Assembly (NCBI GenBank): GCA_034530875.2
Contig: JAVRCJ020000008.1
Location: 1 to 64,000, forward strand
DNA: 64,000 nucleotides
DNA from: Nostoc sp. DedSLP01
GTDB lineage: Bacteria > Cyanobacteriota > Cyanobacteriia > Cyanobacteriales > Nostocaceae
Reading direction: 5' to 3'
Part shown: positions 1,124 to 4,100 of the stretch, piece by piece
How the letters are laid out: every line of letters starts with the position of its first letter
How positions within the stretch are numbered: the first letter of the stretch is position 1
Made by a program: the position numbers

Positions 1124-4100
1124 AGGCAACGAAGCCCCCCAGGTCGGAATCGAACCGACGACCTCCTGTTCTTCAGACAGGCGCTACTACCAACTGAGCT
1201 ACCGGGGGATAATACCAATTCAAAATTAAGAAATTCAGATAATACCTGGGTTTGAGGGTTTATATCTGTTGCTTGATGAGAGGAGAATTGGTATGAGAAG
1301 GAGAGATGGGTATTACCCAGTGGACTGGTTTAATTCAACTCGAATCAGCCACTCCATCATCTCTCCCATGTAACGAGAGTGGAGGGATTTGAACCCTCAT
1401 GTCTTCAGTTTCGTAGACTGAGATGTTATCCAGTTACACCACACTCTCAAGGCGGAGAGGACAGGATTTGAACCTGCGACGGATATTAACTATCCGCTTC
1501 CTCTTAGCAGGAGGACGCTTTGAGCCACTCAGCCACCTCTCCACAGTGGGTCGAGCAGGATTTGAACCTGCGTGCACAATAGAACAGTTTTACAGACTGT
1601 CGCCTTCAACCAGACTCGGCCATCGACCCATGATGAATTTTAGATTTTAGATTTTGGATTTTTGATGAAATATTCCAAATTTCAAATCATTCCCTCGACG
1701 AGAATTGAACTCGCATCTTTGCTTTGAAAGAGCAATGACTTAACCATTCGTCCACGAGGGCAGAATTGAGAGAATTTTAGATTTTAAATTTTGGATTTTA
1801 GATTAGAAATTTAATCTAAAATCGGCAATCCAAAATCCAAAATTGTCTGACGCAGGGACTAGGATTTGAACCCAGAACATCGGATTTGGAGTCACGAGGT
1901 GTTACCATTACACCATCCCTGCATTTGGTAGCAGTGGCGGGACTTGAACCCGCATCGACCCGGTTATGAGCCGGGGGCTTTACCGTTAAGCTACACTGCG
2001 GCACCAGAGGCTGAGGTGAGATTTGAACTCACGATGTCGGTTTTGCAGACCAATGCCTTCAACCACTTGGCTACTCAGCCGTTTGGGAGTCCCGACGAGA
2101 CTTGCACTCGCAATCTTCAGCTTGAGGAGGCAGCGCGTTGCTGAGGTTCCCGACGCTCGAAGACTCGCTCTAAGCGAAGCCATGCCGAAGGCTTTACGCT
2201 GCGCTATCCGTTGTAGCGACTGCCGTGGGCTGACGGCTTCAACTATTCGCCTACGAGACTTCAACCAGGGTGACGGGACTTGAACCCGCAACATTTCCGC
2301 AGACAACGGAACGCTCTAGCCAATTGAGCTACACCCCGATTTTTCGGAATATGTGCCTAAAATTTGAGGTTTTTAGGCACATGTTTTGTTGGTGAACTTG
2401 CCCATTTCTTATTCAGTTTTCAAGGTTCAGAAAAGTTGATTTTTTGTGTTACAAACTATTAGTAAAACAACGAAAATTCTAGGTAATAAACCTGTTGTAT
2501 ATTCCTGATATATTCCGTCGTTTGAATGAGTGCAAACTTAGAACTTTTTTCGTTTGTTGCTTCTACTTCCGATGATTTGCAAGTAGCAGCAGCTTTGTTA
2601 TTTGCAGACTTTGGTTTATTCCAACGTCTGTCCTGGAGTTGTATGTAGAACATGACTTTGACCCTTGCGAAGCTTGTCTTTCGCTTCACTACATATATAC
2701 TACATAATACTACAAAAGAGTGTCAAGGGGTTTCAGAAAAATTTTTTGAAGTTGCCTATAAGAGCTTCTGTGCTTAGATTTGAACTTACTAAGGACGCTA
2801 AAAAATTGCACTACAACTGATGTTGGATAAGTTTAAAAGAGAATTCACCAATTCAGCAGTGCTTGAAGTCAAGATTTAGAACTTCCACCCAGAAGCACCA
2901 CCTTTATTGAAATTTGGTTTGGTGTGCACCCTCAATTCATTCACCAGTCAAACTTCGACTCAATTGGAGAATTCTGTTAGCGAAGCGGGGCGAAGCCCAT
3001 TCTGACTCCTGAATTCTTTCTTCTTAAAAACTCCATCGGTACGTTTTGCTCGGTATGATATTTAATCTGCAAGCATTTACCCAATAGAAACGAGCTATGA
3101 CCCAGAACTACCGCATTACCCTACTCCCCGGCGATGGCATTGGCCCTGAAATTATGGCAGTGGCGGTAGATGTGCTGAAAGTTGTAGGGAACAAGTTTGA
3201 TATTCAGTTTGAATTCCAAGAAGCCCTCATCGGTGGTGCAGCAATTGACGCCACAGGCGAACCTCTGCCTTCTGCGACTTTAGATACTTGCCGTAATAGC
3301 GATGCTGTATTACTTGCTGCCATTGGTGGCTACAAGTGGGATTCTCTACCATCGAATTTACGCCCAGAAGCAGGTTTATTAGGGCTACGTGCGGGTTTGG
3401 AATTATTTGCCAATTTACGCCCAGCGAAAATTTTGCCTCAGCTAATTGATGCTTCGACTTTGAAGCGCGAAGTTGTGGAAGGTGTGGATATTATGGTGGT
3501 GCGCGAACTCACTGGTGGCATTTATTTCGGGAAACCAAAGGGAATTTTTGCTACTGAAACTGGTGAAAAACGCGGTGTAAATACAATGGTTTACACTGAA
3601 TCGGAAATCGATCGCATTGGAAGAGTAGCTTTTGAAGCAGCCCGCAAACGTGGCAAAAAGCTCTGTTCGGTTGATAAGGCTAATGTATTAGAAGTATCTC
3701 AGCTGTGGCGCGATCGCATTACCCAACTTTCCCCAGAATATCCAGACGTTGAACTGTCTCATCTTTATGTAGATAATGCCGCTATGCAGTTGGTACGCGC
3801 TCCCAAGCAATTCGATACCATTGTTACGGGCAACTTATTTGGCGATATTCTCTCTGATGCTGCTGCCATGCTCACAGGTAGTATTGGTATGCTGCCTTCC
3901 GCTAGTTTAGGTGCCCAGGGGCCTGGTGTATTTGAACCAGTTCATGGTTCCGCCCCAGATATCGCAGGACAAGATAAGGCAAATCCTCTAGCACAGGTTT
4001 TGAGTGTGGCGATGATGTTACGCTACGGTTTAAATGAGCCAAAAGCCGCAGACAGTATAGAGCAAGCCGTACTACAAGTTTTAGAACAAGGCGATCGCAC

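Follow-up and report, generated by a model that had tools for sequence, protein, structure and literature searches.

The leader of a long tRNA array (L-array) in Nostoc sp. DedSLP01 carries a 19-nt word, GAACCTTGAAAACTGAATA, and the sequence evidence supports its identification as a genuine rRNA-type boxA copy within the transcribed leader of a TrcR-controlled, trn-type array. In the window, i.e. the complete stretch of 64,000 nt that was analysed (contig C8, positions 1 to 64,000), the word is present in a single exact copy, with 0.03 matches expected at up to three mismatches. It stands upstream of tRNA-Asp(GTC), at a distance of 89 nt measured from its 5' end and of 70 nt measured from its 3' end, in agreement with the survey's finding, which had placed it about 90 nt ahead of the first gene of the array. 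The likeness to the boxA of the 23S leader could equally be confirmed: the copy at C106:400-418 (minus strand), located between tRNA-Ala and the start of the 23S gene, matches the word in 18 of 19 bases and is identical to it in all 13 positions of the core. The features discussed below are compiled in Table 1.

Table 1. Features of the array leader and related sites in the genome (positions refer to the window unless a contig is given)
Feature	Position	Strand	Basis or remark
boxA word GAACCTTGAAAACTGAATA	2410..2428	-	sequence search and leader alignment
19-mer match, up to two mismatches	C12:4062-4080	+	head of the C12 module
19-mer matches, up to two mismatches	C5:174366, C26:16285, C4:91318, C4:330098		four CRISPR leaders, first repeat about 25 nt further on
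19-mer match, up to two mismatches	C4:199479		intergenic
-35 hexamer TTGACA	2721..2726	-	promoter scan
Three tandem TrcR-type boxes	2686..2714	-	read from the sequence, compared with PMC8421152 and PMC10272220
TrcR-type box 1, TGTAGTAT	2714-2707	-	
TrcR-type box 2, TGTAGTAT	2704-2697	-	contains the -10 element TAGTAT, 2702-2697
TrcR-type box 3, TGTAGTGA	2693-2686	-	
5' hairpin of the transcript	2667..2689	-	stem 2689-2683 with 2673-2667, read from the sequence
Conserved 64-aa leader ORF (MFYIQ...YYLEFSLFY)	2459..2653	-	homologous leaders
Conserved block AATGGGCAAGTTCACCA	2390..2406	-	third most conserved leader window
12-bp hairpin without U-tract	2351..2382	-	inverted repeat I15, arms 2382-2371 and 2362-2351
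L-array, 20 tRNA genes, Asp first	129..2339	-	ARAGORN and Rfam
Interrupted tRNA-Glu(CUC) homologue	2081..2263	-	alignment with the intact Glu gene of relatives

Searching both strands of the genome (8.57 Mb) with the 19-mer yielded 1, 4, 8 and 14 matches at zero, up to one, up to two and up to three mismatches, respectively, the numbers expected from base composition being 0.0002, 0.009, 0.24 and 3.9. The survey had counted ten matches; we obtained eight with the 19-mer, and the two matches described as lying inside genes were not among them. The exact 13-nt core occurs five times in 8.57 Mb, with 0.36 copies expected, and its carriers, the rRNA spacer (ITS), three CRISPR leaders and the tRNA-array leader, all head structured-RNA operons. 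The reported presence of the word in four CRISPR leaders was reproduced at up to two mismatches, and a fifth CRISPR leader (C1:317956) contains it with three. Among the 45 tRNA transcription units only the L-array and the C12 unit have the core with at most one mismatch upstream. In both 16S leaders of the genome boxA has diverged (GAACCATGAAAAT and GAACCTTAAAAAT), indicating that the exact word is dispensable at some rRNA sites. Two further sites were taken as chance or decay, namely C97:1016, which is flanked by convergent ORFs and followed by no RNA gene, and the intergenic site at C4:199479, which has two mismatches in the core. The other 19-mer matches with three mismatches and most core matches with one mismatch are located inside long open frames.

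The array promoter is of the sigma-70 type (TTGACA-N18-TAGTAT, 10 of 12 matches in the promoter scan) with TGTAGTAT repeats over the -10 element and the transcription start, and it is the sole strict match to this pattern in the genome; AACCCCTTGAC is nearly invariant among 30 homologous leaders. Its layout agrees with that of the trn promoter of PCC 7120, where, according to the accessible text of PMC8421152, 9-nt direct repeats cover the -10 element and the start site of the trn operon and where the accessible text of PMC10272220 places the TrcR footprint on TGTAGTAT, overlapping the -10 element TAGTAT. From this arrangement we infer a transcription start near 2690. The boxA word begins 298 nt downstream of the -35 hexamer and about 260 nt after this putative start, so that it sits on the sense strand of the transcribed leader and outside the promoter. 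The 5' hairpin of the transcript reads GAAGC..GCTTC here and GAGGC..GCCTC in other aligned leaders. A nearer promoter candidate recognized by eye (TAGAAT, about 2481-2476) was rejected, being without a good -35 element, located inside the conserved ORF and unlisted by the scan. Upstream, a divergent ORF, which we take from its first residues to be leuB, occupies 3097-4185 (plus strand). Single RNA-library contigs of relatives (about 90-95% identity) bridge leader, boxA and proximal tRNAs in all four runs, from two studies, and the same contigs continue over the promoter toward the presumed leuB, possibly by DNA carry-over, so that they demonstrate neither a single transcript nor the start site.

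The array itself comprises 20 tRNAs and one disrupted gene in 2.2 kb on one strand, beginning with tRNA-Asp(GTC) at 2339-2264 (minus strand), and runs toward the contig start. Its distal part apparently lies on another contig, as the end of C44 carries eight further tRNAs, the last being Lys, and the arrays of 11 relatives (6-28 tRNAs, 10 of them 21-28) all end in Lys. The disrupted gene stands where relatives have the order Asp-Glu-Cys; about 100 nt have been inserted into it (about 2127-2229), a stretch that the contigs of relatives skip, passing from 2126 to 2230. We searched for a leader-trailer helix with RNAduplex, pairing the leader from boxA to the first tRNA with the 200 nt after the last tRNA (30 shuffles each); in 11 of 12 complete arrays the z-scores ranged from -1.98 to +2.71 and no common pairing emerged. 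Within the window no inverted repeat links leader and array, the array end lying off the contig.

The claim that the array is purely non-coding could not be upheld, since the leader holds a conserved 64-aa ORF, a new observation here, whose stop codon ends 30 nt ahead of boxA. A frame of 58-65 aa is intact in 25 of the 30 homologous leaders and truncated in three, the remaining two falling outside the start-codon pattern used (one has ACG for ATG), and the other two frames of the region contain 3.4 stops on average. The ORF has a median dN/dS of 0.49, which drops to 0.33 in its C-terminal third. ORFs of 62-66 aa with a shared C-terminal motif are present in long leaders of other families as well; in the Nostoc-type leader the conserved C-terminal motif of the ORF is of the QQVYYLERRLF type and ends 19-30 nt before boxA. 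The ORF has no match to a Pfam family and 18 database homologues, of which some are nameless and the named ones hypothetical, except for one 'Transposase'.

Downstream of boxA follow the conserved block AATGGGCAAGTTCACCA, which is missing from the shortest leaders while these keep boxA, and a 12-bp hairpin that is part of the RNAalifold consensus, with both sides changed in 2 of 8 pairs. We rejected this hairpin as a terminator, as it has no following U-tract and is unlisted in the terminator scan. The boxA word is predicted to be unpaired in the RNAalifold consensus of 20 sequences, and in a consensus of 23 sequences it is touched only by a weak, invariant 5-bp stem.

All 30 homologous leaders are followed by tRNA arrays, and 29 of them contain the exact core despite an overall leader identity of only 73-87%. 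When the 533 19-nt windows of the aligned 551-nt region were ranked by conservation, boxA came first, above the -10/TrcR boxes. We then used the internal Gln-Gln-Leu tRNAs, an anchor that excludes the leader, on 401 genomes of the order. This gave 37 loci, five of them cut by contig ends, and every one of the 32 evaluable arrays, which come from many families and include the PCC 7120 trn operon, had the core ahead of it on its own strand (exact in 20, with one mismatch in 10 and with two in 2; chance rates per 600 nt 0.0002, 0.0008 and 0.011, respectively). The distance from boxA to the -35 hexamer is 77-91 nt in 24 arrays and 287-303 nt in six, demonstrating that its position is independent of promoter distance; the shortest leaders have lost the ORF as well as the block and hairpin that follow boxA, but have kept boxA itself. 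In each of the 62 array leaders examined the orientation of boxA follows transcription, and two leader remnants without tRNAs (L050 and L059) have the core with two mismatches. The sequence evidence thus supports strong purifying selection on boxA in array leaders. L-arrays spread by horizontal transfer, as stated in the accessible part of PMC8421152. This conservation reflects common descent in part, and the sampled genomes are non-independent. In a plasmid database the long leader gave no match, and the short leader found eight plasmids (six from Nostoc, two from Calothrix), matched via the promoter only.

The C12 module shares this leader signal, as had been proposed, and in addition the TrcR-type promoter and the 5' hairpin: the order promoter, hairpin, boxA (variant GAACCTTGACAAC) is the same as at the L-array, and this combination is found at several loci as a cassette of about 120 nt. 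Conservation is less complete than the nine of nine module loci reported before, with the core found at up to two mismatches in only 12 of 20 homologous leaders. The assignment of C12 as a Ro60/Y-RNA module was not borne out either, as the Pfam TROVE family matches only C2:177325-178080 in the genome. The C12 ORFs encode proteins of 255 aa (no match), 133 aa (L7/L12 domains) and 517 aa (VWA only), and Rfam reports tRNA and tRNA-like matches at C12, with no YrlA at the gathering score. Ro60 itself has a C-terminal VWA domain, and C12 may for this reason still encode a divergent Ro60. The proposal that array and module are read as rRNA-like operons is thus supported with respect to the shared leader signal and calls for correction with respect to the purely non-coding leader and the Ro60 identity.

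The survey had described cyanobacteria as lacking Rho, and this applies to the present genome, which is 99.8% complete and contains no match to Rho_RNA_bind. A terminator scan of the transcribed strand over positions 1-3200 detected no intrinsic-terminator-like site, and the tRNA trailers of the array have no U-runs. The classical targets of antitermination are therefore missing, which, in turn, would weaken a strict 'antiterminator' role and leave that of a Nus loading site untouched. A search for the NusB family gave Pfam matches above the cut-off at C20:136292-136582 and C19:141040-141414. The searchable literature yielded no binding or functional data for any cyanobacterial boxA.

The closest known system is the rrn boxA with its antitermination complex (NusB, NusE/S10, NusA, NusG, SuhB, S4). 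The array leader has the same word as the spacer of its host, on the sense strand and predicted to be single-stranded, at the head of a long operon of structured, untranslated RNA, and in short array leaders a hairpin precedes boxA, like the boxB helix before the spacer boxA. Unlike rrn, the array operon codes for tRNAs only and shows no leader-trailer helix (11 arrays), its boxA follows a predicted small ORF in Nostoc-type leaders, and the genome is without Rho; moreover, the PCC 7120 array is silent unless derepressed, being under TrcR (accessible text of PMC8421152 and PMC10272220). A second parallel is the boxA of CRISPR leaders, which keeps distal units expressed and protects from Rho (Stringer et al. 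2020, as cited in the accessible part of PMC7862264). It likewise heads a long, repetitive non-coding array, and five CRISPR arrays of the present genome carry the word; here, in contrast, the genome has no Rho and the cargo consists of tRNAs. In mRNA leaders (suhB, rpsJ), boxA serves the autoregulation of Nus factors, according to the available portion of 10.1101/091223. As in these leaders, the array boxA stands outside rRNA and near an ORF, but the suhB/rpsJ boxA precedes the ORF and represses via Rho, whereas the array boxA follows the ORF and precedes untranslated genes.

The trn operon of PCC 7120 (pCC7120delta), which is TrcR-repressed and induced by translational stress (accessible text of PMC8421152 and PMC10272220), has the same promoter architecture, first gene (tRNA-Asp GUC) and gene order as the array studied here. 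Its leader is short, has neither the 64-aa ORF nor the block and hairpin that follow boxA in the present leader, and contains boxA with one mismatch, GAACCATGAAAACTAAATA, 81 nt after the -35 hexamer and 14 nt before tRNA-Asp. The accessible text of PMC8421152 mentions neither boxA nor antitermination nor a leader, that of PMC10272220 neither boxA nor leader, UTR or termination, and our literature search found no paper describing a boxA for cyanobacterial tRNA arrays.

Based on these comparisons we favour, with reasonable though not high confidence, boxA as a site on the RNA at which NusB/S10 is loaded, serving processive transcription and folding, and the array is probably made by Nus-factor-modified polymerase, as is rRNA. 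Nascent single-stranded boxA RNA would bind NusB and ribosomal protein S10 (NusE), which together with NusA and NusG would turn RNA polymerase into the rRNA-type processive complex. This complex would read the array from end to end (about 3 kb, about 29 tRNAs) while keeping the 5' end of the transcript tethered, which may aid folding and processing. Since the genome is without Rho and the array without intrinsic terminators, the benefit is less likely to be protection from Rho than faster, pause-resistant elongation across densely structured RNA, combined with an RNA-chaperone effect.

The word might instead be an RNA signal for another partner, i.e. an entry or cleavage site of a processing nuclease or the target of some other RNA-binding protein. 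All its carriers are precursors cut into small structured RNAs (rRNA, crRNA, tRNA), the conserved stretch of 19 nt exceeds the 12-nt cyanobacterial spacer domain listed in the accessible part of PMC8997340, and many leaders have behind the word a conserved block and a hairpin that lacks a U-tract. Short leaders, however, lose block and hairpin yet keep the word, which stands at the classical rRNA boxA sites, behind the promoter as well as in the spacer between its tRNAs and 23S, and whose core shares 7 of 11 positions, among them the critical C at position 4, with GYTCTTTAANA, the consensus of gammaproteobacteria (available portion of 10.1101/091223), so that we consider this explanation unlikely, if conceivable.

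Action of the word as DNA, either as a site for a transcription factor or nucleoid protein or as a recombination or homing target tied to array mobility and CRISPR spacer integration, seems quite improbable. Integration signals are expected close to the first CRISPR repeat, the zone in which the word is found in the CRISPR leaders (about 25 nt from the repeat), its distance from the -35 hexamer is nearly fixed at 77-91 nt in 24 of 32 arrays, and the PCC 7120 array has an HNH endonuclease gene immediately upstream (also in the accessible part of PMC8421152). Yet in long leaders a shift of about 220 nt in its distance from the promoter leaves the word in place, the copy in the rRNA spacer has no promoter nearby, its orientation tracks transcription in 62 of 62 array leaders, and no HNH gene adjoins the array in the window. 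That the word is a mere passenger of a mobile promoter-leader cassette, having no present function at tRNA arrays, would fit the horizontal dissemination of L-arrays (accessible part of PMC8421152) and the recurrence of the 120-nt cassette, but is highly improbable given that the word is conserved above the promoter elements themselves, persists in many families although the leader around it has been completely replaced, and is degraded in the two tRNA-less remnants, which belong to one genus and may represent a single event.

A broader proposal, which we put forward as speculative and rather doubtful, extends the NusB/S10 loading site to a class: boxA would mark the structured-RNA operons (rRNA, CRISPR, L-arrays and tRNA-like modules) of Rho-less cyanobacteria, with the leader ORF as a translation sensor. 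If this class holds, the Nus complex would originally have served processivity and the folding of RNA, and not protection from Rho. In Nostoc-type leaders, a ribosome finishing or stalling at the stop of the 64-aa ORF would decide whether S10/NusB load on boxA, so that array induction by ribosome-targeting antibiotics would gain a further level of control after initiation.

Long tRNA arrays occur widely and are mobile, the Anabaena array is turned on by translational stress, and array control has so far been explained at the promoter only, via TrcR. The mapped promoters, the trcR mutant and the Northern probes for proximal and distal tRNAs make PCC 7120 a tractable system for the roles of boxA and Nus factors without Rho, and trn-promoter reporter fusions are affected as well, as boxA may or may not be included in them. 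If boxA is indeed universal in the leaders of these arrays, the array would be made by an rRNA-type polymerase complex, which would explain, simply and in a testable way, how a precursor with about 29 tRNAs in about 3 kb gets completed.

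The 19-nt boxA word GAACCTTGAAAACTGAATA occurs in the window as a single exact copy on the minus strand (2410-2428; 0.03 copies expected at up to three mismatches). Its 3' end lies 70 nt before tRNA-Asp(GTC) (2339-2264), the first transcribed of the 20 minus-strand tRNA genes at 129-2339, in agreement with the survey's finding of the word ahead of the array. Across the 8.57 Mb genome (113 contigs, the window being C8:1-64000) we found 1, 4, 8 and 14 matches at 0, ≤1, ≤2 and ≤3 mismatches, compared with composition-based expectations of 0.0002, 0.009, 0.24 and 3.9. The survey had listed ten matches at ≤2 substitutions; the 19-mer gave eight, with the rRNA, array, C12, CRISPR and C4 sites all recovered. 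The copy between tRNA-Ala and the 23S start confirms that the word is the host's own 23S-leader boxA, and the four CRISPR leaders reported to carry it do so at ≤2 mismatches, a fifth (C1:317956) having three. The exact 13-nt core GAACCTTGAAAAC is present five times (0.36 expected), namely in the rRNA spacer, three CRISPR leaders and the array leader; one-mismatch core copies lacking the ...ATA tail mostly lie inside long open frames. A search of the 500 nt ahead of each of 45 tRNA transcription units (74 tRNAs) gave the core at ≤1 mismatch for just two, the array and the C12 unit. The 16S leaders (C43, C73) contain diverged variants, GAACCATGAAAAT and GAACCTTAAAAAT, 125 and 157 nt ahead of 16S; these stand ~40-60 nt downstream of TTGACA-type promoters, each followed by a common TTTGAAAGC motif. 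A further boxA-like word, GAACCTTGAAAAT..., at C64:4995-5013 (+), precedes by ~490 nt a CRISPR array of eight repeats that belong to another repeat family (Rfam CRISPR-DR15), and the only rtcB gene of the genome follows 3.5 kb downstream of this locus on the same strand.

Features of the array leader, genome matches to the boxA 19-mer at ≤2 mismatches, and the C12 module (window positions unless a contig is given)
Feature	Position	Strand	Remark
-35 TTGACA	2726-2721	-	
Tandem box 1 TGTAGTAT	2714-2707	-	
Tandem box 2 TGTAGTAT	2704-2697	-	-10 TAGTAT inside
Tandem box 3 TGTAGTGA	2693-2686	-	
5' hairpin	2689-2667	-	
Leader ORF	2653-2459	-	64 codons
boxA	2428-2410	-	19-mer match, array leader
Conserved block AATGGGCAAGTTCACCA	2406-2390	-	
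12-bp hairpin	2382-2351	-	no U-tract behind; tRNA-Asp next
19-mer match	C106:400-418		tRNA-Ala/23S start interval per Rfam; classical spacer boxA position
19-mer match	C12:4062-4080		C12 module leader, one mismatch
19-mer matches			four CRISPR leaders, ~25 nt ahead of first repeat
19-mer match	C4:199479		intergenic
C12 module	C12:3959-8536		loci L002, L126; TrcR-type promoter and boxA-like word in front
tRNA-like element	C12, downstream		tmRNA-model match under gathering score
Two tRNA matches	C12, downstream		
255-aa ORF	C12, downstream		no Pfam family
L7/L12 paralogue	C12, downstream		ribosomal protein, 133 aa
517-aa ORF	C12, downstream		C-terminal VWA domain only

The promoter of the array is the one described for the trn operon, the corresponding array of Anabaena PCC 7120, where 9-nt direct repeats cover the -10 box and the 5'-RACE-mapped start site (PMC8421152) and where the repressor TrcR leaves a footprint on TGTAGTAT over the -10 TAGTAT (PMC10272220). 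By homology with PCC 7120, transcription of the array would start near 2690. This puts boxA inside the transcribed leader, roughly from +262 to +280; it is not part of the promoter. The PCC 7120 operon, which has been studied experimentally, has a short leader with a one-mismatch boxA and without the 64-aa ORF: on plasmid pCC7120delta an HNH endonuclease gene, TTGACA, TGTAGTAT boxes, GAACCATGAAAACTAAATA and tRNA-Asp follow each other, GAACCATGAAAACTAAATA standing 81 nt after the -35 box and tRNA-Asp 14 nt further on.

A 421-nt leader query matched 92 of 201 genomes of the family. tRNA arrays lie downstream in all of the best 30 loci (73-87% identity to the window's leader), and the core is exact in 29 of these, L042 having two changes. 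Of the 533 windows in the alignment of these 30 leaders, none is as well conserved as the boxA 19-mer, which surpasses both the TrcR/-10 boxes and the -35 box. Among more distant matches, 12 of 20 loci have the core followed by tRNAs (exact in 11, two changes in one); several of these leaders have lost ORF, conserved block and hairpin alike, boxA then standing 14-30 nt from the first tRNA. Two loci of one genus, L050 (G165:C2) and L059 (G144:C28), still carry the tail of the ORF, a boxA with two mismatches (GAAGCTTAAAAAC) and the hairpin, with no tRNAs downstream, and look like leader remnants of decayed arrays.

Because these loci had been found via the leader itself, we repeated the search in 401 genomes of the order with the internal Gln-Gln-Leu tRNAs (689-923) as query, leader excluded. 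Matches at E <= 1e-20 occurred in 42 genomes; of 37 loci fetched, five end at contig edges before the array start. The core was present upstream of the first tRNA and on the same strand in all 32 remaining arrays (20 exact, ten with one mismatch, two with two; array start re-read by hand in four), counts that overstate the independence of the compared genomes since these share ancestry and arrays spread by horizontal transfer. Per 600 nt, the core is expected by chance at rates of 0.0002, 0.0008 and 0.011 for 0, ≤1 and ≤2 mismatches. boxA follows the -35 box at 77-91 nt in 24 arrays and at 287-303 nt in six, two having no match to the promoter pattern; in L087, L090 and L089, from other families, boxA precedes the first tRNA by 470-660 nt.

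The leader ORF is intact as a 58-65 aa frame in 25 of the 30 family loci; two of the others were missed by the start-codon pattern (one has ACG for ATG) and three are truncated. Its indels are in frame, such as an 18-nt deletion in two loci, the two alternative frames contain a mean of 3.4 stops, and median dN/dS is 0.49 (0.33 in the C-terminal third). In other families, the long leaders code for peptides of 62-66 aa with the C-terminal motif of this ORF (QQVYYLERRLF type) and with stops 19-20 nt before boxA. No Pfam family was found for the ORF; some of its database homologues are unnamed, and those with a name are annotated as hypothetical proteins except for one 'Transposase'. The 3' coding region is partly a hairpin in which three of five outer-stem pairs are changed on both sides, so that constraints on the RNA and on the peptide may coincide there. 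That translation of the ORF is coupled to boxA loading is speculation.

The C12 module and the array have the promoter-hairpin-boxA layout in common, the C12 word being preceded by CCCCTTGACA, TGTAAT/TGTATT-type repeats and a short hairpin. This bears out the proposed common leader signal; the 'Ro60' label of the module remains unconfirmed, as the only Pfam TROVE match in the genome lies on C2, with no boxA found near that gene. The survey had found the word conserved in nine of nine module loci aligned; in our set the core is present at ≤2 mismatches in 12 of 20 homologous leaders, usually as GAACCTTGACAAC, and more degraded or absent in several. The C12 boxA thus shows no more conservation than the sequence around it.

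The tRNAs of the array are spaced by 1-10 nt without U-runs, and no terminator-like sites were found on its strand. The second gene, tRNA-Glu(CUC) in relatives, is interrupted (2081-2263, minus strand) by a ~100-nt insertion at about 2127-2229 and thus was not called by ARAGORN; L019, L026 and L033 have similar small insertions in the tRNA-Asp T-arm. At 1849-1923 (minus strand) ARAGORN gives a tRNA without a determined anticodon ('cc') where relatives have tRNA-Trp(CCA), after Cys and Met, and the anticodon loop may be altered. Eight tRNAs at a contig end (C44:53671-54628, minus strand; Thr, Gly, Val, Arg, Ala, His, Ser, Lys), with Lys last as in the complete arrays of 11 relatives, are probably the distal part of the array split by assembly, ~29 genes in total. 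Longer spacers (72-128, 935-1042, 1634-1685, 1769-1848) contain heptamer-type, AATTTTAGATTTTGG-like repeats that form long inverted repeats inside and between spacers and may be processing hairpins or dispersed repeats.

That rRNA operons carry a boxA is textbook knowledge. Its presence ahead of CRISPR arrays has been published (Stringer et al. 2020, cited in PMC7862264). In the text searched of both publications describing the Anabaena array, neither boxA nor a leader is mentioned, and the same holds for antitermination in PMC8421152 and for UTR and termination in PMC10272220. Full-text literature searches on boxA or antitermination at tRNA arrays or in cyanobacteria yielded no description of boxA at cyanobacterial tRNA arrays; the literature searched held no experiment on a cyanobacterial boxA.

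As far as sequence comparison can tell, boxA behaves as an RNA signal, because it has the sense orientation throughout and is indifferent to promoter distance, predicted to be unpaired in consensus folds and identical to the host rRNA boxA. These properties speak against a DNA-level site, which we consider unlikely; a passenger of a mobile cassette is a very improbable reading. An RNA signal outside the Nus system is also unlikely, if slightly less so than either. The word matches the gammaproteobacterial consensus GYTCTTTAANA in 7 of its 11 positions, among them C4, which is described as critical (10.1101/091223), and a NusB gene was found in the genome. The most economical reading, which we regard as probable, is that NusB-S10 loads on boxA RNA and that the loaded RNA polymerase would form an rRNA-type elongation complex on the array. 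Rho was not found by a search of the genome that also gave no match in a Synechococcus control, and its absence, the terminator-free strand and the close-packed tRNAs without U-runs limit the NusB-S10 reading. For these reasons the gain from boxA would likely be speed, pause resistance and co-transcriptional folding of the tRNAs rather than classical antitermination.
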